Counted from the first letter of the stretch, positions 2,099 to 38,393 are shown. The stretch is 39,414 nt of DNA from a virus (IMGVR_UViG_2225789004_000001:1-39414), one strand, 5' to 3'. Notes: generated from the sequence alone by a model not told the origin. Made by a program: numbers and translations.

Positions 2099-4144
2099 TC
2101 ACCGCCTGCCGGGTTTCAACTGAAACGACCATGTTGTTTTCTTGGAAGTTGAATTTGAAACATACCGTTTTTCGAATCCCTGTAAATCCATTTCAACGGA
2201 AAAGTTACCGCTTGATAACGGTTTATATCCATTTTCGTCACACCAAATAGAATACTCATATTTGTAAAAATGAGCGGCTGTAACAGACTTTAAATATTCG
2301 TTTAATTCAGCCTTTTCGCCATAACCGTTGAGGAACTCTACGACCGGATTTGACAAGATTTCATAGGCTTTTTTCATCTCAATCACACTCTCGGAAATAG
2401 TGAATCCGTATTTTTCCATTCGCCAATATCCTTTTATTGCCTGCTGTATTAGATATTCCAACGATTCGTGCGTTGTCAGTTTATCTATCATTTTATCATC
2501 TTCATCAGTCGAGGTGAATTTTGCAATAAACGGTATCAAGATGATTCTTCGAAGAAAACCATCCGAAGTATCGTCTGTTCTTGGCGGACGGTTTCCGGCG
2601 AAGATGAATTTTGCACAATTTGAAAATTTAATCGGTGTTTGGAATTTTATATCCACTGTCACCGAATCGCCAGTGACGAGTTTCTTAAAAAGGTTTGCAC
2701 CGGACACATATCGCATATTTATGTCACTGCCGATATTGATTAATTTACCGATTAATTTATGAGTGAAAAATTGCTTATTCAAATCTTCAAAATCCAATGA
2801 TTCAATATTATTACCGCCGAAAGCTTTCGTCACTGCTTTTAAGAAAGTGGATTTGCCGTTTGCACCAGAGCCGATTAAGAAAAACGATTTTCCTTTTTCA
2901 TTTCTTGGATTCAGGCAGAAACCAATCATTTCATAGAGAAGTTTTTCTAAATCTTCGTTGTTGCAAGTGATGTCTCTCATAAATTCGTCAAATACCGGCG
3001 ATTTCGCATTTGGATTGAAATCAATCGGTAATTTAAAGAAACAAATCCTGTCCGGTGAATAATCATACACCTTTCCGGTGCGGTTACTCCAAACGCAATT
3101 GCTAAAACCAATAAATTCATACAACTCCGCATCTTGAATATCAAAATTTGGAATCGCTTCTTCGGTTGTTAAGATGAAATCAAAAATTTCATTTATTTCA
3201 TTGCGTTTGAGATTGAAAATCGTATCCATGATTAAAGATTTTAAATTATCATTACGATAAATGCCATTTTGATACGCATACGGAACTCCGTTTATCTTTT
3301 TTATGTGTAAAACATTAATCAGACATTCTGCCGCATCTTGGTGCTTAAAACCATAATGCGGTTCGACAAACTATAACTTATCCGCTTTACCGCCAGTCGC
3401 AACCGTTGCCTTTTCAAATGTCTTATCCCGAAGAATCGCATCCATTTCCTTTTTCGATAATTTCTCTTCAAAAATCATTCCATTGATGATTCGACAAACT
3501 GTTTCAACATCATCTCGATTCATCAACTTTTGAAGTCCAAGAGCAAACTCAGAAAGCGTATGATTCCGGCTTCCTTGCTTCATTTTGAAAATGGATTCTC
3601 GTTTTTTGAAATAATAGAAGAAAAACGGAAGTGGGGACAATTCATCAAACGAATAAATTTCACCAAGAAAATTGCGGTCAATGGTATCCAGTCGAATCGG
3701 CTCATAGTCCGGATTTTTGCCTTGTTCACCGCCGAGTTTATATTCACATTCCAAACCTAACGCACAAATATGTCCTTGCGGTATTTTTTTTGGAATATTT
3801 CCTCTTGGGTTCTCAATCAAATCAGGATTCTTAAAATAGATGTGGTATCCTTTTTCAGTTTGAACGACATTATATTTCAAATCAATTTCGAACATTTCTT
3901 TTTCGACAATTAATTTCAAAAGACTGACTGCGAATTTACCTTCTTCTTCGTTATCGAAATCAAGAACAACAATGCCGTTTCTAATCTCTCCGGCAATGAA
4001 GTTTTCAGTTTCATCAACATTATAAAGCAACGGTGCTGAACGTGGTTGAAGCGGCACTTTCTTTTGCTCTGCATGCCATGCTTTCGCACTTAATTTGAAA
4101 AAACCATTATAAAGAGATTGAATTTTTGGATTTTTTAAGTCCAT
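2099..4144 (-). CDS. Prim-Pol primase fused to D5/P4-type helicase, with one in-frame TAG at 3371..3373
   Basis: ORFs 3371..4153 and 2099..3229 are in the same frame (924 nt apart). The 47 codons between them have no stop. N-terminal part has VVLDFDNEEEG and GYHIYF (Prim-Pol-like). C-terminal part has Walker A GSGANGKST. ATG 4144 is preceded by GAGTGATAAAA. Confidence 0.7.
3371..3373 (-). other. In-frame TAG inside the primase-helicase
   Basis: Context ...ADKL-TAG-FVEPHYGFKHQDAAECLINVLHIKKINGVPYAYQNGIYRND... The frame stays open into the helicase domain. Confidence 0.75.
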
Positions 4145-4149
4145 TTTTA

Positions 4150-4407
4150 TCACTCATCTGGTAAACGCTTTGCCAATACTCTTTCTTCGTGTTGTCGTTC
4201 AATGGATTGTAAAAATCTGGAAATCCGATACCGAATTTCTTTAATATCGTTTTGTTCCAATTCTTCGCCAACTTCCTCTATTTTTATGTGAAACAATTTC
4301 GGATTATCTTTCTGAACCGAAACTTTAACCATCATTACGATTTGAGAATCTAAATCTGTTGAAACATTTACCGGCGAACTCTTTTTTTTGAAAATATTAT
4401 TAAACAT
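4150..4407 (-). CDS. Hypothetical protein
   Basis: ORF track 4150..4578. ATG 4407 is preceded by GGAG. The upstream part of the ORF overlaps a hairpin-containing spacer. Confidence 0.5.
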   Translation of the reverse strand: MFNNIFKKKSSPVNVSTDLDSQIVMMVKVSVQKDNPKLFHIKIEEVGEELEQNDIKEIRYRISRFLQSIERQHEERVLAKRLPDE

Positions 4408-4543: not shown

Positions 4544-5011
4544 TTATTTCCAAATACCGAATTTTCGGGTGGGGTCAATGGCTTGCTTTCTGAAATCTTG
4601 GAGTGATTTTAAGTCCGCCATACAGCCAGTGACGTGTTCTTCGATACCGGAAATAACTTCATTCACAAATTCGATATGGTAGTGACGAATGAATTTATTG
4701 AGTGTTTTTAATTCCCATTTGCCAGAAATGGGAGTGTAGCCTTCTTCTTCATTAGAGTGTTTCGCTCTTTCTTGGATAAGGCGTTCAATAAATTCTCGTT
4801 CATCGGAATCCATGAATGTAAGAGCGGATTTCAGAACTAAATCTTCAAATCCGCTCGCATCAATTGCATAGTTGTCGGAATCAAACGAATATCCGTCTCG
4901 TGATTCCAATATTTCTAAAATTGCGTCATAAATAGAATCCAACTCCGACTCAAAATAAGTCGGAGTGTTTTCTACTGATGAACTTTCAATTCGTTCATCC
5001 ATTTCAATCAC
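4544..5011 (-). CDS. Acidic hypothetical protein
   Basis: ORF track. SD ACGGTGATTGAA upstream. Confidence 0.7.
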   Translation of the reverse strand: MIEMDERIESSSVENTPTYFESELDSIYDAILEILESRDGYSFDSDNYAIDASGFEDLVLKSALTFMDSDEREFIERLIQERAKHSNEEEGYTPISGKWELKTLNKFIRHYHIEFVNEVISGIEEHVTGCMADLKSLQDFRKQAIDPTRKFGIWK

Positions 5012-5014
5012 CGT

Positions 5015-5812
5015 TTACTGCGGCATTGTGCATCTTGCAATAATTACATCGGCTTGAATCGGAACTTCGTATTCATAATTGCTTCCGTTTTCAAGAGACC
5101 AGAAATAAAGTTTGCCGAATTTATCGCCGAACTTAAATTCATAATCTTCGCCGAAACTCTTTTCCAGTTTGTTCATTATTGCTAAACATTCCGAATCTGT
5201 GATTGGTTTAATACAATTATCGTTGCCGAAACTTTCAATTTGAGCGAATCCGGCGGCTTGAACTCCACCGCACATGAAATAAATGATTTCGTTGTCTTTC
5301 TTGGAAGCGATTTCATTTACCAAGAAATTAATTGATGTTTCATCATTGACATGATGGTGGATGATGGATGTTACCGGATTGCCGAAAATATTTGTTGTTT
5401 TCAATTTTTCAGAAATCCATTTCTGCCTTTGTTCGCTGATGTCAAACTCATTCCCTTTTTCATCCAAAGAAATTGAAATGGAATGTCCGGCTGTCAGTTG
5501 TGTCGTTTCTGCATCTTCATATAAGACTTCATAAACGATGATTTTGTTTGAGTCCAACATCGCTTCTTTTGCCGCATCCGGAACATCGTCCGTCATAATC
5601 ATATGCATCATAAATTCGACTGATAAATCTTCCAGATTTTTGCTGTCTTTCAAATTGATTGCTTCAACTTTCGTCAATCCATACTTTTCCTTCATCATCG
5701 GATTTAAGAAAAGTGTTCTTTCACCGGAATCAACGATTTCCTTTAACGCAAGAATATCAGATTCGGTTTTAACGAGCAGGTTGTAAGCAATTCCAGATTT
5801 TAAATTTTTCAT
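5015..5812 (-). CDS. Hypothetical protein
   Basis: ORF track. GGAGTGAAAAAAT upstream of the ATG. Confidence 0.75.
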   Translation of the reverse strand: MKNLKSGIAYNLLVKTESDILALKEIVDSGERTLFLNPMMKEKYGLTKVEAINLKDSKNLEDLSVEFMMHMIMTDDVPDAAKEAMLDSNKIIVYEVLYEDAETTQLTAGHSISISLDEKGNEFDISEQRQKWISEKLKTTNIFGNPVTSIIHHHVNDETSINFLVNEIASKKDNEIIYFMCGGVQAAGFAQIESFGNDNCIKPITDSECLAIMNKLEKSFGEDYEFKFGDKFGKLYFWSLENGSNYEYEVPIQADVIIARCTMPQ

Positions 5813-6906: not shown

Positions 6907-6973
6907 TCCAATTATTAGTAGTAATTTTACTACAATTACATAAAGTCACTATAAGTATATATAGGTTTTGGTT
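6903..6973 (-). promoter_or_regulatory. Conserved promoter module, leftward arm
   Basis: TATATATA 6956..6963, hairpin GTAGTAA/TTACTAC 6918..6933, SD rc at 6903..6909. Shares 25 bp (6949..6973) with the 50-bp repeat. Confidence 0.6.
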
Positions 6974-7087
6974 GGATGTTTATGTTGTCTGCTATCGTTA
7001 TATTATATTATGTGTTGATTATGGGTTATTACTTTTTTATGTTTTCTTATTACTTTTTATGATTTTTTTTCAGTATTATATTTTTAA

Positions 7088-7717: not shown

Positions 7718-7782
7718 CCAATAAGTATATATAGGAATAAAGACTATACTATATTGTAGGTAAATTACCTAATTGGAGTGAT
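7718..7782 (+). promoter_or_regulatory. Conserved promoter module, rightward arm
   Basis: CCAATA, TATATATA 7726..7733, 13 nt, TACTATATTGTAG 7747..7759, palindrome TAGGTAAATTACCTA 7757..7771, GGAGTGAT 7775..7782. Confidence 0.65.
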
Positions 7783-7787
7783 TAAAA

Positions 7788-8000
7788 ATGAAAATTATTG
7801 AAATGAGAATGAAATCAAAACAAATCATCGCAGAATACCAAACAAAAAATATTTTTGTTGTTGTGGATGAAGAAGTTGGACATCATCAAGTTACAAATGT
7901 GATTTCTGTTGATTCAAAAGTTGCAAAAGTTCAAGCCGGAGAATTTATCAGAGAGTTGAGAATTGATTCTTCATCAGTTGTGTTGATTTTGACGGAGTGA
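7788..8000 (+). CDS. Hypothetical early protein
   Basis: ORF track. Strong SD. Confidence 0.7.
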   Translation: MKIIEMRMKSKQIIAEYQTKNIFVVVDEEVGHHQVTNVISVDSKVAKVQAGEFIRELRIDSSSVVLILTE

Positions 8001-9097: not shown

Positions 9098-9514
9098 ATG
9101 TGGCAAATTGCTGACATGATTCTGGCACGGAAGATAAGCGAATCTTTGCGGATGAAATCCGATTTCCGGATAAACGGAGTTTCGGTTATTTTCATTTCCG
9201 CAGATAAAATTTTTCCATATCATCTTGATTTTTTCTTGGAAGATGGCGACACTATCAATCTTGATTTCTTGGTTAATCGCACTGTCGATATAGATTTCGA
9301 TTATGAATACTATGATGAGAGAGAAGAATTTATTTTCGAGATTATTGAAATGAGTTCCGGCTTGAATCAGTTCGATAAAGAGAAAAGGAATAGGATGTTA
9401 TTGAAAGAAGAATATTTATCGCCGCCGGAACTAAAAAGATTGCTCGCAATAGAAGGATTTTATGAATATCAAAAATTCAGAGTAAAAAACGGACAAAGAG
9501 TATATATAGGATGA
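9098..9514 (+). CDS. Hypothetical protein
   Basis: ORF track. Its 3-prime end overlaps the next promoter module. Confidence 0.65.
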   Translation: MWQIADMILARKISESLRMKSDFRINGVSVIFISADKIFPYHLDFFLEDGDTINLDFLVNRTVDIDFDYEYYDEREEFIFEIIEMSSGLNQFDKEKRNRMLLKEEYLSPPELKRLLAIEGFYEYQKFRVKNGQRVYIG

Positions 9515-9557
9515 AATACTATACTATATTGTAGGTAAATTACCTAATTGGAGTGAT
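9494..9557 (+). promoter_or_regulatory. Conserved promoter module
   Basis: TATATATA 9501..9508, 13 nt, TACTATATTGTAG 9522..9534, TAGGTAAATTACCTA hairpin, GGAGTGAT 9550..9557. Confidence 0.65.
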
Positions 9558-9562
9558 AAGAA

Positions 9563-9751
9563 ATGATTTATAGAGTTTGTTATAGCAGTATTCATTATGA
9601 TGCCGAAGAAGATGATGAATTTTCCGCATTTGATTCGGATTATTTCTCAACCAGAGAAAAAGCAGAAGAGTTTGCCAAGAAGGTCAGCGGCGATGTCGAT
9701 GAAATCACCGAAGAACATTTTGAAAGATTGAGAGTTCCGTTGAGAGGTTAA
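9563..9751 (+). CDS. Acidic hypothetical protein
   Basis: ORF track. Confidence 0.7.
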   Translation: MIYRVCYSSIHYDAEEDDEFSAFDSDYFSTREKAEEFAKKVSGDVDEITEEHFERLRVPLRG

Positions 9752-10446: not shown

Positions 10447-10515
10447 CCAATAGTTATTTATAGGAACGGATACTTTACTATATTGTAGTTTCAAAATACT
10501 ACAATTTGGAGTGAT
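10446..10515 (+). promoter_or_regulatory. Conserved promoter module (TATTTATA variant)
   Basis: AACCAATA, TATTTATA 10455..10462, 13 nt, TACTATATTGTAG 10476..10488, hairpin GTAGT/ACTAC, GGAGTGAT 10508..10515. Confidence 0.6.
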
Positions 10516-10519
10516 AAAT

Positions 10520-10645
10520 ATGCAGTATAATAAAAACATGACAGCTTGCGAAATCGAAAGTCAGTTGGAAAGAATCCAGAAGGAATATTTTGTTTCAGAA
10601 TCCGAAGCACGAGATATGTTCATTAATATGCGAATGGATGTGTAA
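10520..10645 (+). CDS. 41-aa protein
   Basis: Hand translation: MQYNKNMTACEIESQLERIQKEYFVSESEARDMFINMRMDV. Sits behind the promoter module and SD. Confidence 0.5.
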   Translation: MQYNKNMTACEIESQLERIQKEYFVSESEARDMFINMRMDV

Positions 10646-12141: not shown

Positions 12142-12211
12142 CCAAAGATTATATATAGGAAGACATCCCTATATAGTATTGTAGTAAAATGATACTACAA
12201 CTTGGAGTGAT
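12142..12211 (+). promoter_or_regulatory. Conserved promoter module (last one before the long rightward operon)
   Basis: CCAAAGAT, TATATATA 12150..12157, 13 nt, ATATAGTATTGTAG, hairpin GTAGTA/TACTAC, GGAGTGAT 12204..12211. Preceded by a long T-run. Confidence 0.6.
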
Positions 12212-12215
12212 TAAA

Positions 12216-12713
12216 ATGAAAACTTTGAACCAACTTTTGATTGAAAAGAAAATCGCATCTGAAAAATACAGTAATGCAATTCGCACGATGGATTGGATGG
12301 GTGAAGATAAAGACTTTGTTGAATCTTATCGAATTGCTTGTATCAATAAAGATGCCGAAGTTGCTCAAAAGAGACAAGAGAATAGAGATTGTGACAAATA
12401 TCTCGAAGAAGAGAGAAAACACCAAACCACTTTTAAAAATCTTCCGGAAGAATTTAAAAACATTGTTCCGAAAATTATGGAAATGGCAGAAACAGAAAAT
12501 AGATTCTGGGGTGAATGTTATGCGATTTCGTTTTATAATAAAGTCGCAAAATACACCAAAGGAAATGAGGAGATTAAAAGATTTTACTTCACCGGAGTTG
12601 AAGTTCTTGGTTTGGTAATCGGAAATGGCGGTGCTTTCGAAGTCAGAACAATTTTCGCAGGCGGTTGGAATGTTCAGAGATTTCATTACAGGGTTATCGT
12701 AACCCCTGTTTAA
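12216..12713 (+). CDS. Hypothetical protein
   Basis: Track ORF 12189..12713. ATG 12216 follows the SD. Confidence 0.7.
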   Translation: MKTLNQLLIEKKIASEKYSNAIRTMDWMGEDKDFVESYRIACINKDAEVAQKRQENRDCDKYLEEERKHQTTFKNLPEEFKNIVPKIMEMAETENRFWGECYAISFYNKVAKYTKGNEEIKRFYFTGVEVLGLVIGNGGAFEVRTIFAGGWNVQRFHYRVIVTPV

Positions 12714-13295: not shown

Positions 13296-13805
13296 ATGGC
13301 ATCTTCTCAATTACCAAAAACTCTGGAATTTTGGCTCTCGGATAAAGGGCTTCTCATTTTGAATAGTTTCGGTAGAGCCGGAATGACTGTTAAAGAAGTG
13401 TGTGAAAAAATCTCTATTTCTCAAAAAATATTTAAAGCATGGATGGAAACACACCATTCGATTCGAAATGCGTTTAATCTGGAAGAACGGAATTATATTG
13501 ATATTGTTGAAGGCAAACTTTTAAAAGCCGTAACCAATGAAATTGAAACCTACAACGAAAAAAGCGTTGTTGAAAGAATTGTTTATGATTCCGAAGGTAA
13601 ACAAGTTGGTAAGGTTGTCACAAAAAAGACAGTTGAAAAGCCGATTAAAATCGAATCTGAATTAATGAAATTTTATCTCACCAATCGTGCGGCAGATAAA
13701 TGGGCGTATTCACCTGAACCAATTAAGAAACGAAATGTTTCAAAATTAGAGGAAATTATGCAAGAATGGGTATCGGAAAGCAATAAAGAGAGTGATGAAG
13801 AATGA
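13296..13805 (+). CDS. terS: Terminase small subunit-like HTH protein
   Basis: N-terminal HTH (GMTVKEVCEKISISQKIFKAWM), then ...IVEGKLLKAV... and ...FYLTNRAADKW... typical of TerS proteins. Positioned upstream of terL. Confidence 0.5.
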   Translation: MASSQLPKTLEFWLSDKGLLILNSFGRAGMTVKEVCEKISISQKIFKAWMETHHSIRNAFNLEERNYIDIVEGKLLKAVTNEIETYNEKSVVERIVYDSEGKQVGKVVTKKTVEKPIKIESELMKFYLTNRAADKWAYSPEPIKKRNVSKLEEIMQEWVSESNKESDEE

Positions 13806-14521
13806 AAGTTTTAGTTACCGGAACAACACACGGAATTGGACATTCAATTGCAAGGTTATTCTTGGAAGAAGGACATTTGGTTGTCGGGTTGGATATTGAA
13901 CCTGAAATCGACCCTTTAAGTGCCGAGTTTGCCGATTGGAAATTTTATCAATGTGATGTCGGAAAGCCGGAAGAATTGCCGGACGAATCTGATTTTGAAA
14001 TCATCGTAAATAACGCCGCAACTACGGATGAAAAATCCGCAATTCAGACCAATCTTCTTGGTTATGTGAATGTTGGTGAAAAATACGCTTTCCAAGAAAG
14101 AATTAAATCAGTTGTAAACATTTGTTCAATATCATCAGTTAGTGGAATTGAATTGCCGAATTATTGCATTTCAAAAGGCGGTAATTTAGCATATTCACAA
14201 AACTTATCTCTTCGATTAGCACCAAGAGCAACAGTAAATGCGATTATCTGCGGCGGTGTGATTACTAAAATAAATCAAGAGATTTTAGATGACGAGAAAC
14301 TTTACCAAATGTGTAAAGACGAAACCCTTCTTGGAAAATGGTGTCAGCCAAGAGAAGTGGCAGATTTAGTTTATTATTTGACAGTTGGAAATAAATCTAT
14401 CACTGGACAAACTATAACTATTGATAACGGTGAATGTGCCAAATTCAATTTTATTGGAACTTCCGAAGTTAAAAATGAATTTTATAAATCACAGTTTAAA
14501 AGGAGTGAATTATATGAGTAA
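13802..14521 (+). CDS. Classical short-chain dehydrogenase/reductase (SDR)
   Basis: TGTTHGIGHSIA (TGxxxGxG), NNAA, catalytic Ser region CSISSVSG, YCISK (YxxxK). Confidence 0.85.
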   Translation: MKVLVTGTTHGIGHSIARLFLEEGHLVVGLDIEPEIDPLSAEFADWKFYQCDVGKPEELPDESDFEIIVNNAATTDEKSAIQTNLLGYVNVGEKYAFQERIKSVVNICSISSVSGIELPNYCISKGGNLAYSQNLSLRLAPRATVNAIICGGVITKINQEILDDEKLYQMCKDETLLGKWCQPREVADLVYYLTVGNKSITGQTITIDNGECAKFNFIGTSEVKNEFYKSQFKRSELYE

Positions 14522-15080
14522 AACAAACGAAATTTCTGTTCTCGATATTGATATTGAACAAATTAAAAAATATGAAAACAACCCAAGAGAAAATGCGGAA
14601 TCAATTCCTTATGTTGTAAACTCAATTAAGGAATATGGGTTTAAAAATCCAATTGTTTTGGATTCCAACATGGTTATTATCGCCGGACATACAAGATTTG
14701 AAGCCGCAAAGATTCTTGAAATGAAAACAGTTCCGTGTATAATTGCGGAAGATTTGACGGAAGAGCAGGCACGAGAGTTCCGATTAATTGACAATAAAAC
14801 TGCGGAATTGTCTTATTGGAATTTTGATAAACTTTTAGAAGAGATTTCGCATTTGGAGTGCGATTTAACGCAATATGGATTCAATGACATTCAAGATAGT
14901 ATTCGAGATTTAGATGATGTTGATGAAATTACAGAAGATAATTATAAGAATCCGGAACAAGCGAAAAAGAAATGTCCGGCTTGCGGTCATGTTGATTTCG
15001 TTGTAAATTTCAGAATTGTTAAAAATGAAGCAGTATCATCAACACCAACTTTCGAAGAACCTGACGAGGAATTTGAGTGA
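14514..15080 (+). CDS. ParB N-terminal (ParB/Srx) domain protein with C-terminal Zn ribbon, DpdB-like
   Basis: YENNPRENAESIPYVVNSIKEYGFKNPIVL..IIAGHTRFEAAKILEMKTVPCII. CPACGH near the C-terminus. ATG 14514 follows AAAGGAGTGAAT. Confidence 0.75.
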   Translation: MSKTNEISVLDIDIEQIKKYENNPRENAESIPYVVNSIKEYGFKNPIVLDSNMVIIAGHTRFEAAKILEMKTVPCIIAEDLTEEQAREFRLIDNKTAELSYWNFDKLLEEISHLECDLTQYGFNDIQDSIRDLDDVDEITEDNYKNPEQAKKKCPACGHVDFVVNFRIVKNEAVSSTPTFEEPDEEFE

Positions 15081-15838
15081 AGATTTTCTTATCAGCAGTC
15101 GAAGGGTCTGAAAAACATATTATCGACAGATGTATTAGAGAAGGAATTAATCTCAAATACATTTTAATTTCTTATTTTCACCTTCGCAAAAACGAAAAAA
15201 TATTCAACAAATTAAGATTAATTTGCGATGAAATGCTCATCGACAGCGGGGCACACTCTTTTCAAAAAGGTTTTAAAGTTGATTTTTATGAGTTTACCAA
15301 AGAATATGCTCAATGGATTATCGAAAATGATTGCGACCAAATGACTGGTTATTTTGAGATGGATATTGACAATTTAATCGGTTATGATGAGGTTAAAAAA
15401 CTTCGTGCAATTCTCGAAGCCGCACACCCGACAAAAATAATTCCGGTATGGCACGCAACGAGAGGTGTGGAAGAGTTCGAAAAAATGTGTGAAGAATACG
15501 CAGGTCGAATCGTTGCCATTTCCGCAATTAGAAATAAAGACATTTCAGACGACCAGTATATGATGTTTTTGAAAACAGCAAAAAAATATGGATGTAAAGT
15601 TCATGCTCTTGGAATGACACGAACAAATTTATTAAATAAAGTTCCTTTTGATTATACAGATTCATCAACATGGAAACAAACTGGTAATTATGGCGGTTTC
15701 GCCAAATTTACAGGATGTAAAATGAAAGTCGTTAGTGCGGCAGGTGGTCTGAAAACTTATTATTTAGATTTTCATAATTTAAAAGAATTTATGAAAATGC
15801 AACAGTATTTCGAAGCAAAATATAAACATTTAGAATAA
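15077..15838 (+). CDS. dpdA: DpdA-like DNA transglycosylase (TGT superfamily)
   Basis: LIDSGAHSFQKG resembles the TGT DSGGFQ catalytic strand. FDYTDSSTW resembles the second conserved Asp strand. ILISYFHL is a TIM-barrel strand. Neighbours are ParB-like and YhhQ genes. Confidence 0.6.
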   Translation: MKIFLSAVEGSEKHIIDRCIREGINLKYILISYFHLRKNEKIFNKLRLICDEMLIDSGAHSFQKGFKVDFYEFTKEYAQWIIENDCDQMTGYFEMDIDNLIGYDEVKKLRAILEAAHPTKIIPVWHATRGVEEFEKMCEEYAGRIVAISAIRNKDISDDQYMMFLKTAKKYGCKVHALGMTRTNLLNKVPFDYTDSSTWKQTGNYGGFAKFTGCKMKVVSAAGGLKTYYLDFHNLKEFMKMQQYFEAKYKHLE

Positions 15839-15844
15839 AAGGAT

Positions 15845-16540
15845 ATGATTGAAATGATACAGAATGAATTGCTGTTTTTTGTCACCATGTTGGTGAACTT
15901 CTCCGGCATCTTGATTGCTTATAAATTGTTTGGTAAACAAGGTCTTTTCGTATGGATGGGGCTTGCGATTGTTATAACTAACATCGAAGTCCTCAAATGC
16001 GTGGATATGTTCGGATGGGCTGTCACGTTAGGAAATGTGATATACGGCACAACTTTCTTGGTTACGGACATCCTTAACGAGAAATATGGTGTAAAAAAAG
16101 CACGGATGGCGGTTATGGTCGGATTCTTTGCGATGATTGTTTTCACGGTTATCATGCAGGTAAATCTTCTCTTCGAAGTGAATGCCGCCGACTTTTCCAA
16201 AGATGCTTTTGAAACAATCTTCGCCGTTCTGCCAAGAATTGCAATCGCTTCTATTATTGCTTATCTTGTCGCAAATCTTATTGATGTTCAAGTTTATCAT
16301 TTCATCAAAAAGGCATTGCCGGACGATAAGTGGTTATGGGTGCGAAACAACGGCTCATCCCTCTGCGGACAAGCAATCGACACTGTTATTTTTGGAATTA
16401 TCGCATTTATTGGACTTTACGAATTTCCGATAATTTTCCAACTCACAATAACAAGTTATATCTTAAAATTTGTGATTACTCTTTGCGAAACACCGTTTTT
16501 ATACATTGCGAAACGAATAAAGCCGATTTACGATGAGTGA
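15845..16540 (+). CDS. yhhQ: YhhQ/DUF165 (VUT) family queuosine-precursor transporter
   Basis: Polytopic membrane protein. GNVIYGTTFLVTDILNEKYGVKKAR and SSLCGQAIDTVIF match YhhQ signatures. Confidence 0.7.
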   Translation: MIEMIQNELLFFVTMLVNFSGILIAYKLFGKQGLFVWMGLAIVITNIEVLKCVDMFGWAVTLGNVIYGTTFLVTDILNEKYGVKKARMAVMVGFFAMIVFTVIMQVNLLFEVNAADFSKDAFETIFAVLPRIAIASIIAYLVANLIDVQVYHFIKKALPDDKWLWVRNNGSSLCGQAIDTVIFGIIAFIGLYEFPIIFQLTITSYILKFVITLCETPFLYIAKRIKPIYDE

Positions 16541-17867
16541 AATATTTAATCCAAAGCAAAAGCGTTCTTTTAGACGTTTTATTCAAAAAGCGTTTAAAAG
16601 AATTAACTTTTTTGAAGGGTCGGTATCATCTGGAAAGACCTACATCACATTGATTCTTTGGTCTCTCTGGGTGATGTCACGACCGCCGCAATCAGTCCAT
16701 CTTATGTTCGGAAGAACTATCACTTCTTTGGAACGTAATTGTCTGCTTCTTTTGACGGAACTGTTCGGCGAAGAAAATGTTCAATACTCTGTTTCTTCGA
16801 AAAGGATGCGACTATTTGGCAGGCTTGTCTGGTTAGAAGGTGCGGATAACGAAAGAGCCAGAGCGAAAATTCAAGGTTTAACGATTGATTCAGTGTATGG
16901 TGATGAACTCCCACTCGTTCCGGAAACCTTTTTTAACATGGTTCTTTCTCGTATGAGGATTCTCGGCTCGAAAGGATTTTTTACCGGAAACCCCGATGAC
17001 CCGACAAATTACGTTAAGAAGAATTGGATTGACCGCATTGAAGAGGACGATTTAGATATGATGGTTGAACATTATCATATCTGCGATAATTCGATGTTTC
17101 TTCCGGAAGGTTATATTGAAAATTTATAGAAAGAATACACTGGCGTGTTCTTCAAACGTTACATAGAAGGTCTTTGGGTTGTTGCCGAAGGTGCAGTTTA
17201 TCAATTGTTTGGCGATAATTCAGACGATTATATTATTGATTTGAAAGATTACAATTTTGATAATTTAATGTATATCAACATTGGCATAGATGTTGGTGAA
17301 ACAGAATCCGGAACTGCGTTCACAGCAACCGGCTTTGAGAAAAATTATGCCGGCATTGTTGCTCTGGATGCCGACTGGATTAAAGGAAATGCCTTAACCG
17401 ACCCCACCGCACTTTACGAAGCGTTTCATGCTTTCTTGGCACGGCAACAATATGACGGTGTGAAGGTAAAAGCGATTTATTTCGATAAGGCTCAACAATT
17501 TTTAAAACGTGGTTTAGTAACTTATCTTTCTTCCAAAGGAATCAACATCCAAGTTTACGATAGTTTAAAATATCCTATCAACGATAGAATTATGGTTACA
17601 AACGCATTATTTTCAACATATAAATTAAAAATAAGCACACGATGTCCGCATTTGATAAAAGCGTTTAAAGAAGCAGTTTGGAAAGCGAATACAACGCCGA
17701 TGGAACGACTTGATGACTTCACTTCTGACATTGATAGTTTAGATTCGTTTGAGTATTCAATCGAAGATGGAATGTATAACATCGTCACCTTTTTACAGAA
17801 ACCAAAAATCAGATTTCCAAAAGAAAATTTAATGATAAAGTTACAAACGCAGAGGTTATATGAATGA
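16533..17867 (+). CDS. terL: Terminase large subunit, with one in-frame TAG at 17127..17129
   Basis: ORFs 16533..17129 (Walker A GSVSSGKT, Walker B VYGDE) and 17145..17867 (nuclease half, IGIDVGETESG) are in the same frame (612 nt apart). Codons 17130..17144 (KEYTG) are open. Confidence 0.85.
17127..17129 (+). other. In-frame TAG inside terL
   Basis: ...PEGYIENL-TAG-KEYTGVFFKRYIEGLWVVAEGAVY... Confidence 0.8.
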
Positions 17868-23046: not shown

Positions 23047-23409
23047 ATGCCGAGTAAAGTTAAAATTGATTTCAAACCATCAAAAATAAATGAAAAATTA
23101 GGCGTTGCCGCATCTTCGGCAACGAAAATGATGATGAATGAGGTGCATAAGGATTCGAATTTCTTCGCACCGGATTTAGAAGGAAATTTGAAAAGAAAAG
23201 TTGAACTGGTTCGCCGAAACGGCAACTGGGTTTTGATTTGGATGTCGGTTTATGCCAGACGGCTTTATTACGGCATTACTTTCAAATTTTCAACACATAA
23301 AAATCCAAACGCATCATCTTTTTGGTTTCATAAAGCAAAAGCGAAAAATTTATCAAAATGGATGAACTTTTTAAAACAATCATTTAAAAGAGAATATGCG
23401 AGGTTATAA
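23047..23409 (+). CDS. HK97 gp10-like tail component
   Basis: ...NFFAPDLEGNLKR...YARRLYYG... pattern and position. Confidence 0.5.
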   Translation: MPSKVKIDFKPSKINEKLGVAASSATKMMMNEVHKDSNFFAPDLEGNLKRKVELVRRNGNWVLIWMSVYARRLYYGITFKFSTHKNPNASSFWFHKAKAKNLSKWMNFLKQSFKREYARL

Positions 23410-23410
23410 A

Positions 23411-23938
23411 ATGTTAGAATTTTTATCACAATTTTTATTTAAATCGGACACGACACACCCGCTTTATCTTATCATAGCATCCATTTATGGTTTTATAACT
23501 GGTGCTATCGGTTTCGCTTTCGGCAATTGGTATGGTTTATTGGCTATTCTTGGCTGTTTGATTACCCTTGACACTATTCTTGGAATCATTGCCGCCGCCA
23601 AAGAAGGTCAGGTTGTAAACAGCAAGATTTTTGCGAAAATGTTTTTTTTGCACAAATTCATCCCATACAGTGCGGCAATCGGATTTTCGGTCTGTATTGA
23701 TTCATTAATTAAGATTTTCTTAACCAATGGAATTGATTTGATACCGCTTTTCGATTGGTTGCCTTATGCCGATGTTATTCTTGGAAACATTTTAACCGTT
23801 ATCTTAATGACGTGGCTTATTGTTAAAGAATCTTGGTCGATTTTGGAAAACCTGACTATTATTGATTCAAAAATCGTTCCGTCACCGATTAAGAAAGTGA
23901 TTGCGAAATTAATGCAAATTGTGAACCCGAATGAGTGA
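23411..23938 (+). CDS. Holin, TcdE/Phage_holin_4_1-like
   Basis: ITLDTILGIIAAAKEGQVVNSKIF and IVKESWSILENLTIIDSKIVPSPIKK resemble TcdE ISFDTLLGCLSAIKSRKFNS and ILYESVSILKNL..GLPVP. Multiple TM helices. ATG 23411 follows GAGGT. Confidence 0.65.
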   Translation: MLEFLSQFLFKSDTTHPLYLIIASIYGFITGAIGFAFGNWYGLLAILGCLITLDTILGIIAAAKEGQVVNSKIFAKMFFLHKFIPYSAAIGFSVCIDSLIKIFLTNGIDLIPLFDWLPYADVILGNILTVILMTWLIVKESWSILENLTIIDSKIVPSPIKKVIAKLMQIVNPNE

Positions 23939-24888: not shown

Positions 24889-25272
24889 ATGGTATTTGAA
24901 TTTCAAAAACCCGACCAACATCCGATAAATATCAAAATCGGCGACAAGGAATACACTTATTACGTTGATGAATACACAATAAATCACGGAATTTATGCAA
25001 AAGCAAAAATGTTAGAAACCGATGCGTTAAATTCAAACACACCGGAAGAAATCGCCGTGACATATCCGGCACGAATTAAAGAACTTTGTGTTGATGTGTT
25101 TGGCGAAGAAGTTTATAACGCATTATCTGAATTTGCCGAAAAAAATCCTTATCGCCTTTCAAAGATGGTTATTCAGTATCTTAACACTGATTTCAAGGAA
25201 CAATATCAACAAATCATCCAAGTGGCATACGCTTCCAAAGTATCTTCTCTGAAACCGAATAAAAAGCGATGA
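24889..25272 (+). CDS. Tail assembly chaperone-like protein
   Basis: Lies between the major tail and tape measure genes. GGAGTGATACAAA SD. Confidence 0.45.
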   Translation: MVFEFQKPDQHPINIKIGDKEYTYYVDEYTINHGIYAKAKMLETDALNSNTPEEIAVTYPARIKELCVDVFGEEVYNALSEFAEKNPYRLSKMVIQYLNTDFKEQYQQIIQVAYASKVSSLKPNKKR

Positions 25273-25280: not shown

Positions 25281-25922
25281 ATGGATTTATTAAAATCGGA
25301 TTTACATCCGATTTTTACTTATAAGAAATGGGATTTCACATTAAATCTTTCTTTGGAACGTGTTCTTAATGCCATTTCTGCACTTGATGAAGAAGCGGAC
25401 ATAAAACAACTCGACCGCTTCTATCTCGTTTTGGATAATTTACTTGATGTCAATTCTAATGATTTTGATACTTTTGAGTATCTTGAAGAAATGACTTGTT
25501 TTGAACAATAGGAAGTTTTCACCATATTGCTGAAAACCTTCGTATTTCCGCCGGAATCTGCGATAAAACGCTCAACTCCATCTTTCGATATTAACTATGA
25601 TTTTGAACTCGTTTATACAGCGATTTTGAAGGCTTTTAATATTGACATTATCGACCAAAAAGAAGTGCTTTCTTGGAACAAATTCAGAGCCTTATTAAAA
25701 GATGTGAATGAAGATTCGATGTTAAATCGTGTTATTGAAATTCGAGAAATGCCTTTACCGCCTGCTACCAAGAAAAATATGGAACGGCGTGCTGAAATCA
25801 GGCGTGCGAAAAAGAAATATGACCTTCCGCACCTGAAAAAAGCAAGAAAGGAAAAAGAACGAGAGACATTGAGAAAGATGGCGGAAATGCAAAAGAAGGC
25901 GGAAGAAAATGGCAACACCTGA
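25281..25922 (+). CDS. Tail assembly chaperone-like protein, with one in-frame TAG at 25509..25511
   Basis: ORFs 25281..25511 and 25527..25922 are in the same frame (246 nt apart). Codons 25512..25526 are open. The basic C-terminal tail overlaps the tape measure start. Confidence 0.5.
25509..25511 (+). other. In-frame TAG in the chaperone gene
   Basis: ...EEMTCFEQ-TAG-EVFTILLKTFVFPPES... Confidence 0.65.
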
Positions 25923-28646: not shown

Positions 28647-30445
28647 TACCGCAATCATCGCAATATTATGTCAATGTTGATAAACCGATAAGAGAACCGT
28701 TCCACCCGACAGTTTTACTTTCATCTTCTGACCCGACATTGATTGCAAAAACACAGTTCGATTCTTCATCATCAGAACTTGTTTTTTCAAAACGTAACCA
28801 ACTTTTTAACCAAATTGTTAATCCTTCTTGGGGATTGCAAACTTTCGAACCAAATAGAACCATTGCAGATGGCAGTTTTGTCGTTTTTGATGATAATACC
28901 GCAGGTGAATTTGGATGGTGGTCGGAAGCAAGATGTGATGAGAATGGAGTTTTTGAAACACCGCAAATTATCAAACTAAACTACACGGAAAATTTAAATT
29001 TCATTGAGTTCAGTATCTTTTTCGATTCTTTTGGTAAAGAATGGTCTGATGATTTTGAAATTTTCTTTTATTCCCAATCCGGTGCAGTTATTCAAAGTTA
29101 TCATATTACCGATTGTGATTCTCCGATTTATCTGATTGAAAATGAATTAAATTTCGTCAGAAGTATGGAAATCAGAATCAATAAATGGTCTGTCGGACAC
29201 CGATTCGCAAAGATTTCAGAATTACTTTCAGGATTCGTTATTTCTTTCACCGATGACGAAATATTTGGAATTTCATTCACTGAAAATTTATCGCTTTTCC
29301 AAGAAGAAATCATCTCGTCAGAATTGTTAATTACAGTTGAAAATTTCAACCAACAGTTCAACATTAATAATCCGCAAGGTGTAGCGAAAAAATTGAATTT
29401 GAGACAAGTTTTCACTGCCGCAATTTCTTTGGAACATGAGTCTATTCCTCTTGGTCTAATGTATCTCATGGAACAACAAAATAACGACCGCAACTTCATT
29501 ACGTTTGTTTGTCGTTCGGTTTTTGATTTTAGCGAAGATGAATATATTCCAGAATCGTGGGAAACTTGTTCTGCATATTCATTATTTGAAAAATTATTCC
29601 AAAAAATTGGAATAAATGAATACGATATTCCTGAAAGTTTGAAAAATATTCAAGTAAATCAGTATGTCGAAAAAATGTCAATCAGACAAGCAATTCAACA
29701 ACTCGCAAATTCTGTTCGTTGTGTTGTTTATGTAAACAGAACCGGAAGTGTAACTGTCGATACCATCAATTCGTTATTTTCGCATACCGGACAATCTATC
29801 ACTTTAAATCAGAACACAACCGAAGAACCACCGAGAGTTGAAAAGTTAAAAACTAATGATTCAGCAACGGTGAATATTTATCAATATTCCAAAGATGATG
29901 AAATTGGAAATACGGAACTTGTAAAGGATTTTAAAGTTTTGGTTGATTCACCAACCCCAGTTTCGTATATTATTTCATACAAAACTATCGCTGATTCTGT
30001 AACCGCAGAAGTTACTGGCGCATCTGTTAGCGGCAATATTCTCTATTATGCAGATAGATGTGAAATTATGCTTTTCGGTCAAGGTGAAGCAGTTGTAAAT
30101 ATTTCAGGCACTCCTGTTTTACAAAAAATCGGAAAAGTTAATATAAAATCAGATTTATTTTATTTGAATCCGATTAAAGAGGATTATCTGATTGAAAATC
30201 AATTTATCGCATCCACTTCGGAAGGACGAATACTCGCAAGTGCATTTGTTGAATTTTCACAATTTAGATTGCGACATGAAGTTTACGAACGTGGCAGACC
30301 GGATTTGGAAGTTGGAGATATGATTAATGTCGAAAATGAGTTTGGACTTTTAACCAATGGAATCATTTTTGAACAAAATATCGAATTTAACCAGAATGGA
30401 TTTTTAGAAGGAAAAATGATTATCAAAGCAAAAGGTGAAAATTAA
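28643..30445 (+). CDS. Baseplate or tail-tip structural protein
   Basis: 600 aa, positioned after the tape measure gene. Confidence 0.55.
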   Translation: MIPQSSQYYVNVDKPIREPFHPTVLLSSSDPTLIAKTQFDSSSSELVFSKRNQLFNQIVNPSWGLQTFEPNRTIADGSFVVFDDNTAGEFGWWSEARCDENGVFETPQIIKLNYTENLNFIEFSIFFDSFGKEWSDDFEIFFYSQSGAVIQSYHITDCDSPIYLIENELNFVRSMEIRINKWSVGHRFAKISELLSGFVISFTDDEIFGISFTENLSLFQEEIISSELLITVENFNQQFNINNPQGVAKKLNLRQVFTAAISLEHESIPLGLMYLMEQQNNDRNFITFVCRSVFDFSEDEYIPESWETCSAYSLFEKLFQKIGINEYDIPESLKNIQVNQYVEKMSIRQAIQQLANSVRCVVYVNRTGSVTVDTINSLFSHTGQSITLNQNTTEEPPRVEKLKTNDSATVNIYQYSKDDEIGNTELVKDFKVLVDSPTPVSYIISYKTIADSVTAEVTGASVSGNILYYADRCEIMLFGQGEAVVNISGTPVLQKIGKVNIKSDLFYLNPIKEDYLIENQFIASTSEGRILASAFVEFSQFRLRHEVYERGRPDLEVGDMINVENEFGLLTNGIIFEQNIEFNQNGFLEGKMIIKAKGEN

Positions 30446-31875
30446 TGCAACCTTCAAGTGATATTATTTATATAACTTTTAACGAAGAGAAAATAGGATA
30501 CAATGGAACAGTCTATCCTATTTTAAAATCTTCTTTATCTACAATAACACCCTTTTTGGAATTTTCAGATAAAGATAAAAATCCATTGAAATTTTATTTA
30601 GATTCTCAATCGGAAACAACTTGGTTTTATATTATTCGATTTGATGCTAAAATAGGAATAAATAAAATTTATATTCACCCATCCAATATCAATAATAGTA
30701 GCATTGATGTTTTTGATGATTATTACGATTTAAGTAAAGGATTAGATGGAAGATTACAAGTATCAGACCCTTCAACAGGTGGTAATGAAGCGGCTTATCT
30801 TGCTTTGGTTTGGCGAAACAGTTTAACAGGAAGCACAATAGCTAACAGAGTAATCCAAGAAGTAGATGGATTACGATATGTAGGTAACTTCTCTCATTTT
30901 ATCAGACCTATATCATCTGTTAAAAACAAAGATTCTTTCGGTGATACATGGGAAGCAAAGGTTGAACATAATAACATTTATTCGAGATGTATATTTGGTT
31001 TTTCTATGCCAAGCCTTAATACAAATTCATATTCAGAAGGTATTAAAAAAGGAAATAACAATAGTTTATCAACAGGGAATAATATTTATTATAACGAATC
31101 AAATTCATCATCATTTAAAACAGATACTGATGCTGAACATGTAAAAACTGATATTTTTGGATTCAATACATTTGAAAATGGCGGTAACAGTTATTTTATT
31201 TCAGAAGATTATTCGAGTAAAATCGAAAGTGGATTTAAGCAAAGAAATCCGAATAGTGGATTACAAACTAACATTAGACATGAATTGAAAATTTGGTCTT
31301 ACGGCGTTAATTTGTCAGATAATTATAAATTATCAACCAAATGGTTTTGGATTCGAAAAAGAACAAATCCGATTCCGAATACCTTTATAATCACTATAAA
31401 TGACGATTAGGAATTTATACCAATTCCTCAATATGCATGGTTTTCTACATCTCCTATTAATGATTTTGATTTTAATAGAATTTCAAATAATATCGCAGTG
31501 TGTTGGACGATTCTTAATAAGATGGGTTATGTGAATCAATTTAGAGAAATGAGATGTGATTTCGATTTTTTTGAACATTTAGACGACCATATTCGTTTAT
31601 CCAAAGAATGGAAGAACATGAGAGAGAATTTGTGGGATTTGTATAAAGTATTTCCTTTGGTACAAATGTTTCCGGAAGCACCGATTTATGTTCAGTTTGT
31701 TGAACCGTCACCAAGAAATCCGGTGGAAGCATTAACGGCAAGTTTATTAAATTCAATGGAAATTAACTTGGCAAACTTATATTACTATTTAACGATATTA
31801 GAATTTGAAAGATTACCGATATTAATGACTGAAAACAGAATGAGACAAAGAATAGTGAGGAAACCGAATGACTGA
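30445..31875 (+). CDS. Tail fibre or receptor-binding protein, with one in-frame TAG at 31408..31410
   Basis: ORFs 30445..31410 and 31498..31875 are in the same frame (1053 nt apart). All 29 codons between them are open, and there is no SD-like motif before the downstream fragment. Confidence 0.5.
31408..31410 (+). other. In-frame TAG in the fibre gene
   Basis: ...IITINDD-TAG-EFIPIPQYAWFSTSPINDFDFNRISNNIAVCWTIL... Confidence 0.6.
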
Positions 31876-33895
31876 TGAATATAACGCACCGTTCCAAGAC
31901 GAAATCACTCAAATATTGACCGCACCGAATCCGGAAAGTGGAAAACCGCCGATTTCGGTGATTTCCTACAATTTGAGAAAACGGATAGATGGTTCGATTG
32001 TCCAATCAGATGTTTTCTTGGAAATGATAAATGAAATCGTCCAAGAAGGTTCATGGAATAACGCCGCCGTGATGAACAATTTTGTCGCAAGAGATAATGC
32101 AATGGCAAAAAATCTCGCAAATGTGATGCTTATTGTCAATACATTACGAAGAGTCCAATCTTCCGGCACGGATAATCTTGAAATCATGGGTATTAATGAT
32201 GATACTGAATTATTCATGAGAAATAACCATTCCGATTTCGGTATCTTGGCAGAAAATTCTATCGCCGGAATGAATCAAATTAAAATTTTAAATGCGAGCG
32301 GATATAGATTTGAAGAAATGTTACCCGTTGCTTTAAATATATCCCCACCTGCATTTAAAATTCCTTTTGCATTAAATCCTTCTTTTATAACATCCGATTC
32401 AGTTCTTTTAGATAACGGTCAAATTGTATATATGTATAGTGCAGGTGGAACTGCTCATGGAACTTCATATAACACTTGGCAATTTGTTTTGTTCGACCCA
32501 TTATTAAATACCACATTCTTAATATTTAATGGTTCAGTAGGAATGGGTGATACTCAAAATCTTATAAAAATAAAAGAACGAAATATGTTTGGATTTCGTG
32601 CTGACGGAGAAGGGAAAATCAGTATAAGAGATTGTAATTCAAACACATCTATATCTTCAAATGCGGCAGCAGCTCGATATACAAGTTGTATATTTTATTC
32701 AAAAATTGATAATACAATATATGGTTTACAAAGTGTAACTGCCCCAAATACCATTTTACTTGCTACCCCCAGTGTTTTGCCCGCAACGCTGACACCTGCC
32801 GCAATCTCATTAAGTCGCACAGTTAGAACTTTATCAACAGGTAATATCGGAAAACCATTAGCGTTTTGTTATGTTTCAGAAACAGAACGATATTGTATTG
32901 GTTTTAGTTCAAATGGGGGTTTATATGAATTAAATAATAATTATCAAGAATTACTTTTACATCCAAGTGTTTTACCCACACCTTTCGGATATGTAAACAG
33001 TATGATTCGATTAGATGATTCTTATTTAGCTGTTATTTTCACAACATATCGTCCAAATAACTCTTCTTGGGATTCTAAATTAATTAAATTTAATAGAAAT
33101 GGAATTCGAATTGATTTAGCTTCGTATGAGGAAATAATTTTACCATTTTTAAATGGTAGAAAAGTTTTAAATGTTTGGAATTATGAAAATATTGCTTATA
33201 TTTCAGGAACGGATGGATTATTGGCTTATTCATTAAATGGTGATTTATGGACTGAAATAATAATGAATAACCCAAATTTTAACGATGCAATGTTATCTGT
33301 TGGAATTACAGTTGGAAACTCAATTTATAACATCTGTCGATATAATAATGATACAATTCCGGCGATTGCTAATTATGAATCATTTAACCCAGATAATTTC
33401 AAAAATAAAAAATATGTTTTGAATACCGAATCTGTTTTAATTGATTCAGTAAATCTTCTTGGAAGTGACATTGTTCTTGGATTAGATTCACCATTAATTC
33501 AGAATCACAACTCCGGCGAATTATTGCGAAGAACAAACAATTCAACAATTCCGCCAAACTCAACAGTGAATGTGACGGTAGAGTTCGATAATTTGTTCTC
33601 ACATAACGCAGTTGTTCTCTTCCCCCAGTTTACCAATCTTCAAAATGTCTCAATCAATGCACAGGTTTCCAAGAGAAATACGACAGATGAGTTAGAAAAT
33701 TTTGAAAACATTCCTCTGGTGCATGAAGTGGAACTTAATGCGGATTGGCGTGAGCAGACATATTTCTTAAAATACCCAACTGATGGCACAATCTTCGCCG
33801 CAAGTTTTACGATAACGAACAACAATCCTTTCGCAATTGAATTATGGCAACTGACCGCAATTCTTTTCGATGAGGTTTACGAAATGGGTGCATAA
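31868..33895 (+). CDS. Large tail fibre or host-recognition protein
   Basis: 675 aa, last large gene of the structural arm. Confidence 0.55.
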   Translation: MTDEYNAPFQDEITQILTAPNPESGKPPISVISYNLRKRIDGSIVQSDVFLEMINEIVQEGSWNNAAVMNNFVARDNAMAKNLANVMLIVNTLRRVQSSGTDNLEIMGINDDTELFMRNNHSDFGILAENSIAGMNQIKILNASGYRFEEMLPVALNISPPAFKIPFALNPSFITSDSVLLDNGQIVYMYSAGGTAHGTSYNTWQFVLFDPLLNTTFLIFNGSVGMGDTQNLIKIKERNMFGFRADGEGKISIRDCNSNTSISSNAAAARYTSCIFYSKIDNTIYGLQSVTAPNTILLATPSVLPATLTPAAISLSRTVRTLSTGNIGKPLAFCYVSETERYCIGFSSNGGLYELNNNYQELLLHPSVLPTPFGYVNSMIRLDDSYLAVIFTTYRPNNSSWDSKLIKFNRNGIRIDLASYEEIILPFLNGRKVLNVWNYENIAYISGTDGLLAYSLNGDLWTEIIMNNPNFNDAMLSVGITVGNSIYNICRYNNDTIPAIANYESFNPDNFKNKKYVLNTESVLIDSVNLLGSDIVLGLDSPLIQNHNSGELLRRTNNSTIPPNSTVNVTVEFDNLFSHNAVVLFPQFTNLQNVSINAQVSKRNTTDELENFENIPLVHEVELNADWREQTYFLKYPTDGTIFAASFTITNNNPFAIELWQLTAILFDEVYEMGA

Positions 33896-34200: not shown

Positions 34201-34246
34201 TGGAAACTCCGTTTCTACTCTTTTTGTAATCACTCCAAAATGATTT

Positions 34247-34287
34247 AAAAAAGAACCCTCACCGGCGGTTATCCAGATGCCGCCGGT
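34247..34287 (-). terminator. Intrinsic terminator ending the leftward arm
   Basis: GC-rich stem accggcgg (34261..34268) and ccgccggt (34280..34287). On the minus strand it is followed by GAGGGTTCTTTTTT. Confidence 0.65.
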
Positions 34288-34292
34288 AACAC

Positions 34293-34523
34293 TTATCTCT
34301 TTTTCATTAATTCGTCTATCTGATACTGTAAATACTAACATTCATCGCCTAAATCGTTATAGCGATAAACCAATTTATTGTAGGCATCTGTATTCGGAAT
34401 TTGACAAATCAGGAAAACATTCTGAACTTTCATAAATTCCTTTGTGACTTTTTCTAATTTCGTTTTCAATTTTGAAATCTTTCGTTTATGGAAATACTTT
34501 TCAATAAAATTCATTTTAATCAC
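34293..34523 (-). CDS. Small protein, with one in-frame TAG at 34335..34337
   Basis: Track ORF 34335..34523 ends in TAG. The same frame continues YLQYQIDELMKKR to TAA at 34293..34295, 5 nt before the terminator stem. Confidence 0.5.
34335..34337 (-). other. In-frame TAG
   Basis: ...YNDLGDEC-TAG-YLQYQIDELMKKR-TAA. Confidence 0.5.
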
Positions 34524-38390: not shown

Positions 38391-38393
38391 CTA
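38391..38393 (-). other. TAG at the ORF end (ambiguous: stop or sense)
   Basis: ...NLTLI-TAG-EMEQSSKFFNFFGVKICKPTIFKCL-TGA. The extension has no independent support. Confidence 0.3.

Follow-up and report, generated by a model that had tools for sequence, protein, structure and literature searches.

Conserved in-frame TAG codons in the large terminase and three other genes of a siphovirus genome are probably translated

How can a phage live with a stop codon in the middle of its large terminase gene? The stretch of viral DNA analysed here (IMGVR_UViG_2225789004_000001:1-39414; 39,414 nucleotides, called the window below) is a complete circular siphovirus genome of 39,381 bp, because its terminal 33 bases repeat at both ends (bases 1-33 are identical to bases 39382-39414, an assembly overlap). 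Its PBSX-type large terminase gene (TerL; 16533-17867, plus strand) carries an in-frame TAG at codon 199 (17127-17129), and this codon is very probably translated to give a full-length protein of 444 amino acids. The first-pass annotation, made from the sequence alone, had described a single TAG between the ATPase and nuclease halves of the terminase. For TerL itself the TAG is indeed single, but for the genome it is not, as at least three further genes are interrupted in this way. The probable decoding of TAG is a genome-wide matter at a few conserved sites and is not terminase-specific. All four long open reading frames (ORFs) of the window that end in TAG continue in frame, with an open stretch of 136 to 423 codons after the TAG, and in public databases, where these contigs are annotated with code 11, all four genes appear split. 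All interruptions of long coding frames in the window are TAGs, none being an in-frame TAA or TGA, and no frameshift is evident in its ORF layout.

The ATPase part of TerL (16533-17126) contains, as had been noticed before, the Walker A (GSVSSGKT, residues 29-36) and Walker B (VYGDE, residues 121-125) motifs, both 5′ of the TAG, and its residues 23-197 match the Pfam families PF03237 (E 1e-9) and PF04466 (E 1.6e-7), namely Terminase_6N and Terminase_3. GSVSSGKT and the D124-E125 pair are conserved across 33 TerL homologs. Beyond the TAG, the frame of the ORF 16533-17129 stays open for 245 codons, from the start of the nuclease part (17130-17864) to a TGA at 17865-17867. Stop trinucleotides number 1920 in the 39,414 positions of the window strand, or about 0.049 per position, from which our own arithmetic gives a chance of about 5e-6 for an open frame of this length past a stop. 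The profile search that the first-pass annotation had proposed for the joined product matched phrog_2 in one stretch (residues 5-421). The joined protein also aligns end to end with hundreds of uninterrupted PBSX-family terminases of about 420 amino acids, at a query coverage of 88-95%, and with the D6E terminase (PDB 5OEA; profile positions 3-403, E 1.8e-57), in agreement with the earlier view that both halves belong to one terminase. AlphaFold models it as one two-domain chain (predicted local distance difference test score, pLDDT, 85.7), in which residue 199 lies in a short loop flanked by helices 192-197 and 204-211. In this model, the loop is part of the region linking the ATPase core to the nuclease domain; the placement of the TAG between the two halves therefore stands, and is refined to the loop between these helices. 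Judging from sequence and model, whether the ATPase and the nuclease would form one physical polypeptide hinges on the decoding of the TAG.

The first of the three other genes is on the minus strand, where 2099-4153 encodes a primase-helicase of 684 codons with a TAG at 3373-3371, in which a PrimPol-like N-terminal part is followed by D5_N and DUF5906 helicase domains. It matches phrog_864 in a single stretch spanning the TAG (57-664, E 1.4e-110), and uninterrupted primase-helicases of 678-688 amino acids align over the TAG; in other phages, the helicase part is a separate protein whose start lies near this point (e.g., P0262, P0263, and P0273). A Gp15-family protein of 213 amino acids is encoded just 5′ of the tape-measure gene (25281-25922, plus strand; TAG at 25509-25511), and Pfam PF06854 (Phage_Gp15) covers its residues 8-182 in one stretch, over the TAG. 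A -1 frameshift of the G/GT type between 24889-25272 and the Gp15 gene was considered and rejected, since the Gp15 frame opens only past the stop of the upstream gene. The tail-region gene B (30445-31875, plus strand; 476 amino acids) has its TAG at 31408-31410, directly ahead of a conserved C-terminal domain starting with EFIP.

Proteins resembling the N-terminal half of TerL are very rare, only three being found among 5.8 billion database proteins. One relative is a phage genome of 33.6 kb (represented by loci L001, L014, L011, and L100, and called L001-phage below), which was assembled three times independently (JGI, ENA, and Logan), the JGI sample coming from a municipal landfill biofilm. 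It has TAG at the same codons of all four genes: TerL (GYIENL-TAG-KEY; L001 5553), primase (DKL-TAG-F; L014 2199-2197, the end of an ORF at 2197-2979), Gp15 (EQ-TAG-E; L001 13957), and the gene B analogue (TAG-EFIP; L011 4792). Beyond those four, no called gene of L001-phage ends in TAG; apparent TAG junctions at L001 4604 and L100 1819 turned out to be off-frame or opposite-strand artefacts. Another locus, L002, has the TerL TAG at the shared codon (3184). The gene B junction is shared with a 56-kb phage, L018 (10970), at 41% overall identity. Gene B is modular: 5′ of the TAG, its sequences in the window and in L001-phage are unrelated, while the part of about 150 amino acids 3′ of the TAG (EFIP...NRISNNIAVCW...LLNSMEINL) is conserved in the window, in L001-phage (L011 3901-5250), and in L018 (10001-11407).

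L018 deserves some attention in its own right. It also has an uninterrupted paralogue of gene B (P0126, 453 amino acids), and it carries TAGs at positions absent from the window (4657-5215, and 16439-16972 on the minus strand). One of its extra TAGs lies near the C-terminus of Gp15, and by eye the similarity seems to continue past it; another joins a 60-amino-acid ORF to a 114-amino-acid ORF, and at 1005-1331 a TAG is found five codons ahead of a TGA that overlaps the ATG of the next gene. General recoding may have advanced further in L018. Among the terminases, those related more distantly (37-49% identity) have no such stop. Of two genome scans, the first found nothing and the second gave TerL relatives only at about 40% identity, all of them without the interruption. 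Megablast yielded no match to the TerL region among 50,697 phage records, scans of viral contigs with the C-terminal part of the primase and with a 600-amino-acid tail protein gave distant matches or none, and a metagenome scan from the three-sequence TerL alignment, whose patterns are weak, returned matches only at 21% identity.

Are the parts 3′ of the TAGs translated in the frame that the TAGs interrupt? Window and L001-phage share 59-74% amino-acid identity over aligned segments, and on both sides of each TAG their nucleotide identity is 0.44-0.59 at codon position 3 against 0.79-0.86 at position 2; for the 3′ half of TerL the values at positions 1, 2, and 3 are 0.70, 0.80, and 0.44. This coding-type constraint includes the 46 codons between the primase TAG and the first ATG after it. 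Because the pattern holds on both sides, the parts 3′ of the TAGs should be translated in that frame. In TerL, E201, Y202, G204, and V205 are encoded just 3′ of the TAG, ahead of any start codon, and are invariant in the 33 homologs. The first start that the ORF finder gives after the TAG is a GTG at 17145, five codons on, and Shine-Dalgarno (SD) scoring found no convincing SD sequence 5′ of it, just as the first-pass annotation had said of the downstream fragment. The comparison of true starts with downstream halves by this scoring is weakly informative, as the ORF-finder starts are not curated. Moreover, the GTG is not conserved, being GTC in L001-phage, whose first start comes 46 codons downstream. 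The invariant residues, the unconserved GTG, the conservation of the coding pattern, and the presence of the TAG in two relatives together support the earlier argument that read-through is needed.

The TAG codons themselves are also kept. At 80 Gln sites of the window, L001-phage has Gln in 41% and the identical codon in 29%, while TAG is retained at 4/4 sites in L001-phage and, in addition, at 1/1 site each in L002 (TerL) and L018 (gene B). If TAG were one more Gln codon, retention at 4/4 would have a probability of about 0.007 (0.29 to the fourth power, by our own arithmetic and for a small sample), and a lower one still with L002 and L018 counted. The conservation of TAG is comparable to that of the single-codon amino acid Trp, which is kept at 92% between the window and L001-phage. 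Few as the sites are, this comparison of sequences suggests that the TAGs are selected as TAG, because the same four codons stay TAG though synonymous sites are saturated.

How is TAG used elsewhere in the window? The stop codons of the about 51 ORFs are TGA in 26 cases, TAA in 22, and TAG in 3. Counted in all frames of the window strand, the trinucleotide TAG occurs 170 times, TAA 802 times, and TGA 948 times. For the whole window, on both strands, our own arithmetic puts TAG (170) as well as its complement CTA (159) about fourfold below the expectation from base composition, and because both fall far below this expectation and below TAA and TGA, the depletion reaches beyond the coding frame. 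Two small ORFs, of which no homologs were found in L001-phage, also meet a TAG. The one that follows the DNA polymerase gene (34293-34523, minus strand) has its first stop, TAG, at 34337-34335, after which come 14 codons (YLQYQIDELMKKR) and a TAA directly before a terminator hairpin; this is probably a fifth decoded TAG. The hairpin, strong and like that of an intrinsic terminator (GTTACCGGCGG...CCGCCGGT, then a T-run; 34230-34292, minus strand), is located where the leftward early and the rightward late operons converge. The other is a 74-amino-acid ORF (38391-38615, minus strand) behind a conserved copy of a promoter/leader element, which ends at a TAG at 38393-38391.

We propose that UAG is read as an amino acid at a few fixed positions in the infected cell. 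TerL would thereby become one ATPase-nuclease polypeptide of 444 residues, and the primase-helicase, the Gp15-type tail protein, and gene B would likewise be made at full length. Because the phage encodes no recognisable tRNA, the decoder would be supplied in trans, either as a suppressor tRNA of the host or as a factor that escaped detection. The inserted residue would most plausibly be Gln, in what may be called a sparse form of genetic code 15 (TAG to Gln), and the TAGs would serve to gate or attenuate the translation of essential, low-copy proteins. That a suppressor supplied in trans inserts Gln at TAGs selected as such gates is the reading towards which we lean. As to the residue, an alignment-column analysis had been suggested for the TerL TAG: uninterrupted homologs have mostly K there, but also R and S, and Q in D6E, which is compatible with Gln and not diagnostic of it. 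At the primase column the outgroup residues are D, D, D, and E. Both columns are compatible with the insertion of Gln without proving it. An NAG codon, differing from TAG by a single base, exists for Lys, for Glu, and for Gln, and the ambers could have arisen from such codons. Phages recoded at TAG are known down to 14.7 kb, and a suppressor tRNA is detectable in only 40% of them (10.1101/2021.08.26.457843); code 15 in phages has been validated by proteomics (PMC9523058).

Several observations weigh against this proposal. Neither of the two complete genomes, the window and L001-phage, contains a tRNA by ARAGORN at default settings or by Rfam at E<=1, and ARAGORN in relaxed mode with introns allowed gave only noise with no plausible CTA anticodon; no suppressor tRNA with the anticodon CUA was therefore found in either. 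Searches of 43 of the about 51 window ORFs against Pfam and PHROG revealed no release factor and no aminoacyl-tRNA synthetase. The in-frame TAGs number only 4-5 per about 11,900 codons. Treating TAG as sense raises the coding fraction from 94.0% to 96.0% by crude ORF tiling, a gain of about 2 points, which is below the >10% for contigs of 5-100 kb used in a density-gain screen for TAG-recoded phages (10.1101/2021.08.26.457843). The four columns do not suffice to determine the amino acid. If TAG were a mere synonym of CAA and CAG, its positions should have drifted between relatives, and none did. One of the TAGs falls within an early gene for replication, whereas the TAGs of recoded phages are described as biased towards late genes. 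Finally, the TAG at 38393-38391 is possibly a genuine terminator: the next 47 nt carry the SD sequence of the ERF gene, and because a real-looking gene (38615-38391) ends in TAG so near to the SD sequence of the next gene, TAG may still terminate at least sometimes.

Could UAG then remain a stop, which a fixed fraction of ribosomes passes at the four sites by programmed partial read-through? Short and long products would result: primase alone besides primase-helicase, a tail protein with and without its C-terminal domain, short and long Gp15, and little full-length TerL. Such a mechanism would account for the constancy of the TAG positions despite saturated synonymous sites, for their location at module boundaries (with the helicase part being separate in other phages, gene B differing 5′ of its TAG and conserved 3′ of it, and the TerL TAG in a predicted inter-domain loop), for the probable genuine TAG terminator at 38393, and for the lack of an encoded suppressor tRNA. 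Pyl-encoding organisms, too, make truncated and extended forms at UAG (PMC12626013). What speaks against leaky termination is that ten TAG sites have no shared nucleotide context, the base after TAG being A, G, or T, and no significant downstream RNA structure or covariation, either in single-sequence folds with shuffles or in an alignment fold; shuffle z-scores, computed for the window sites and the nine conserved ones, lie between -3.2 and +0.9, and the strongest value is that of a hairpin about 45 nt 3′ of the TerL TAG. The Gp15 Pfam domain crosses its TAG as a single domain, and TAG is almost never an ordinary terminator here, which fits reassignment better than a leaky stop. In addition, we know of no use for a free ATPase fragment of TerL. 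We regard partial read-through as unlikely, though worth keeping in mind. As for the efficiency of the proposed decoding, the junction placement and the possible stop at 38393 lean slightly to partial decoding, and the scarcity of TAG terminators to complete decoding.

It is also conceivable that the host itself decodes UAG, as a pyrrolysine user, as a carrier of a chromosomal amber suppressor, or as a cell without release factor 1 (RF1), and that the phage simply follows. Two complete genomes without tRNA, the low frequency of TAG in all frames, and its conservation at the level of single-codon Trp would fit such a host. L001-phage comes from an anaerobic landfill biofilm, and methylamine users occur in anaerobic landfill settings; furthermore, the motif CCAAA-N4-TATATATA of the repeated promoter element, followed about 25 nt later by a conserved block, is readable as an archaeal B recognition element (BRE) and TATA box. 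However, TerL has its nearest relatives in prophages of gut Clostridia, and the family-A DNA polymerase (34520-36304) has its own in phages of Staphylococcus, Paenibacillus, Bacillus, and Enterococcus, neither group of hosts being known for UAG reassignment. The outgroup residues, K/R/S/Q and D/E, show no special amino acid either, and we know of no bacterial lineage in which TAG is reassigned wholesale. We consider decoding as a property of the host itself to be quite improbable. There is still less room for a truly split terminase, whose second polypeptide is started 3′ of the TAG. Phages do have split genes of other kinds, and the GTG five codons past the TAG might serve as a start; yet this GTG is unconserved and without a convincing SD sequence, the protein would lose the invariant E201, Y202, and G204, and three other genes with TAG-only interruptions imply a common cause. 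The two domains of T4 gp17 reportedly do not package DNA when supplied in trans. It would take one base change in AAG, CAG, or GAG to create a TAG by a sequencing or assembly error, or in a decaying, defective phage, but three diverged genomes share the TAG, one of which was assembled three times independently and shows it each time, every interruption is a TAG and never a TAA or TGA, and the downstream parts are under purifying selection, so that this explanation has next to no probability. On these sequence grounds, error, pseudogene, and split terminase appear effectively excluded.

A more far-reaching idea, offered tentatively because we think it rather doubtful, is that the four TAGs are conserved amber checkpoints at domain junctions of low-copy essential proteins, here the primase-helicase, the terminase, the tail chaperone-like Gp15, and the tail-tip protein. 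They might set isoform ratio or dosage, or might tie replication, packaging, and the assembly of tails to the presence of a suppressor activity. Candidate sources of this activity are a host tRNA-CUA, a Pyl system, or a co-infecting element. Sparse recoding of this kind would go unnoticed in the usual screens for coding density and might be widespread.

What kind of host does the rest of the window point to? Gp15 homologs are found in Streptococcus, Listeria, and Bacillus phages. From the affinities of TerL, DNA polymerase, and Gp15, therefore, the host is most likely a low-GC bacterium of the Bacillota type. An archaeal, Pyl-using methanogen was considered as a host, prompted by the TATATATA block, which is similar to an archaeal TATA box, and by the fact that no lysin was found; this idea, weakened by the bacterial relationships of TerL and DNA polymerase, is not supported, though it is conceivable. 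Indeed, no recognisable endolysin, holin-lysin pair, or integrase was found by Pfam and PHROG in 43 of the about 51 ORFs. A 675-amino-acid protein (31868-33895) has no family match, and the sole 'holin' match (23396-23938) is weak and sits among head-tail connector genes. The block itself belongs to a promoter/leader element of about 70 nt in seven copies, located at 7719-7791, 9494-9566, 10448-10520, and about 12150-12218 on the plus strand, and at 1591-1654, 6915-6978, and 38628-38691 on the minus strand. Its layout is CCAAA-N4-TATATATA, about 12 nt, ACTTTACTATATTGTAG, a short palindrome, AATTGGAGTGAT, a few bases, and ATG. The arms of the palindrome vary by copy (TAGGTAA/TTACCTA, GTAGTAA/TTACTAC, TAGGATT/AATCCTA), and the copies stand at the heads of operons running in both directions. 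A promoter specific to the phage, combined with an operator or a leader hairpin, is one possible reading of the element.

Directly upstream of TerL lie a short-chain dehydrogenase gene (13802-14521), a gene for a ParB_N protein (14421-15080), a homolog of the DpdA/tgt-like queuine tRNA-ribosyltransferase (15077-15838; phrog_887), and a Vut_1/YhhQ-type transporter gene (15845-16540). By their sequences, the genes at 13802-16540 together look like a 7-deazaguanine (preQ-type) DNA-modification module. In L001-phage (L001 3976-4954, equal to L014 9030-10008) the Vut_1 transporter is present only as a C-terminal ORF of 113 amino acids, after an ORF of 211 amino acids in another frame, and its gene may be frameshifted or remodelled there. 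Queuosine-deficient tRNA-Tyr misreads UAG in eukaryotic systems, and by analogy a link between the 7-deazaguanine module and amber decoding is conceivable.

How does the window lineage compare with known systems? Code 15 phages, which include crAss-like, Lak, and Firmicutes-infecting clades (10.1101/2021.08.26.457843), likewise have in-frame TAGs in conserved genes including the large terminase, and like the window they are low in GC with TAG already rare and have the majority of their in-frame TAGs in late or structural genes; they avoid TAG as a terminator, as the window seems to do apart from the candidate stop at 38393, and about 60% of them, like the window, show no detectable suppressor tRNA. 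They carry, however, tens to hundreds of in-frame TAGs, against only 4-5 in the window. In recoded gut phages the TAG positions turn over as synonymous changes (10.1101/2023.08.07.552389), whereas those of the window lineage are fixed, include one in an early primase-helicase gene, and lie at module junctions. The habitats differ as well, being a landfill biofilm for the relative of the window and the gut for code 15 phages. In Pyl-encoding organisms (PMC12626013) UAG is rare, as in the window, and is stop or sense without a dedicated cis element, but the relatives of the window point to ordinary Bacillota hosts.

Programmed read-through in viruses is represented by Q-beta A1 (UGA), the murine leukemia virus (MuLV) gag-pol (UAG), and the tobamovirus replicase. 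As in the window, a conserved in-frame stop is followed there by a constrained, startless downstream domain, with the junction at a domain boundary. Unlike these cases, the window has no stimulatory context or RNA structure that could be found, has four genes affected at once, and leaves TAG nearly unused as a terminator. G/GT tail chaperones and Q-beta A1 may serve as analogues for isoforms that partial read-through would produce. In laboratory amber (sus) mutants of phages, UAG in essential genes is viable only where it is suppressed; unlike those mutations, the ambers described here are natural, common to wild relatives from separate metagenomes, and conserved over long divergence.

Until now, the recoding of stop codons in phages has come to notice chiefly where its density disrupts ordinary gene calling. 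The window lineage represents a minimal form of it, with 4-5 ambers fixed in essential early and late genes and no suppressor tRNA. If the ambers are control points, the use of stop-codon ambiguity in regulation and the source of the decoder become testable questions, and the 'fragmented' terminases, primases, and tail genes of virome catalogues might, in turn, reflect the same mechanism.

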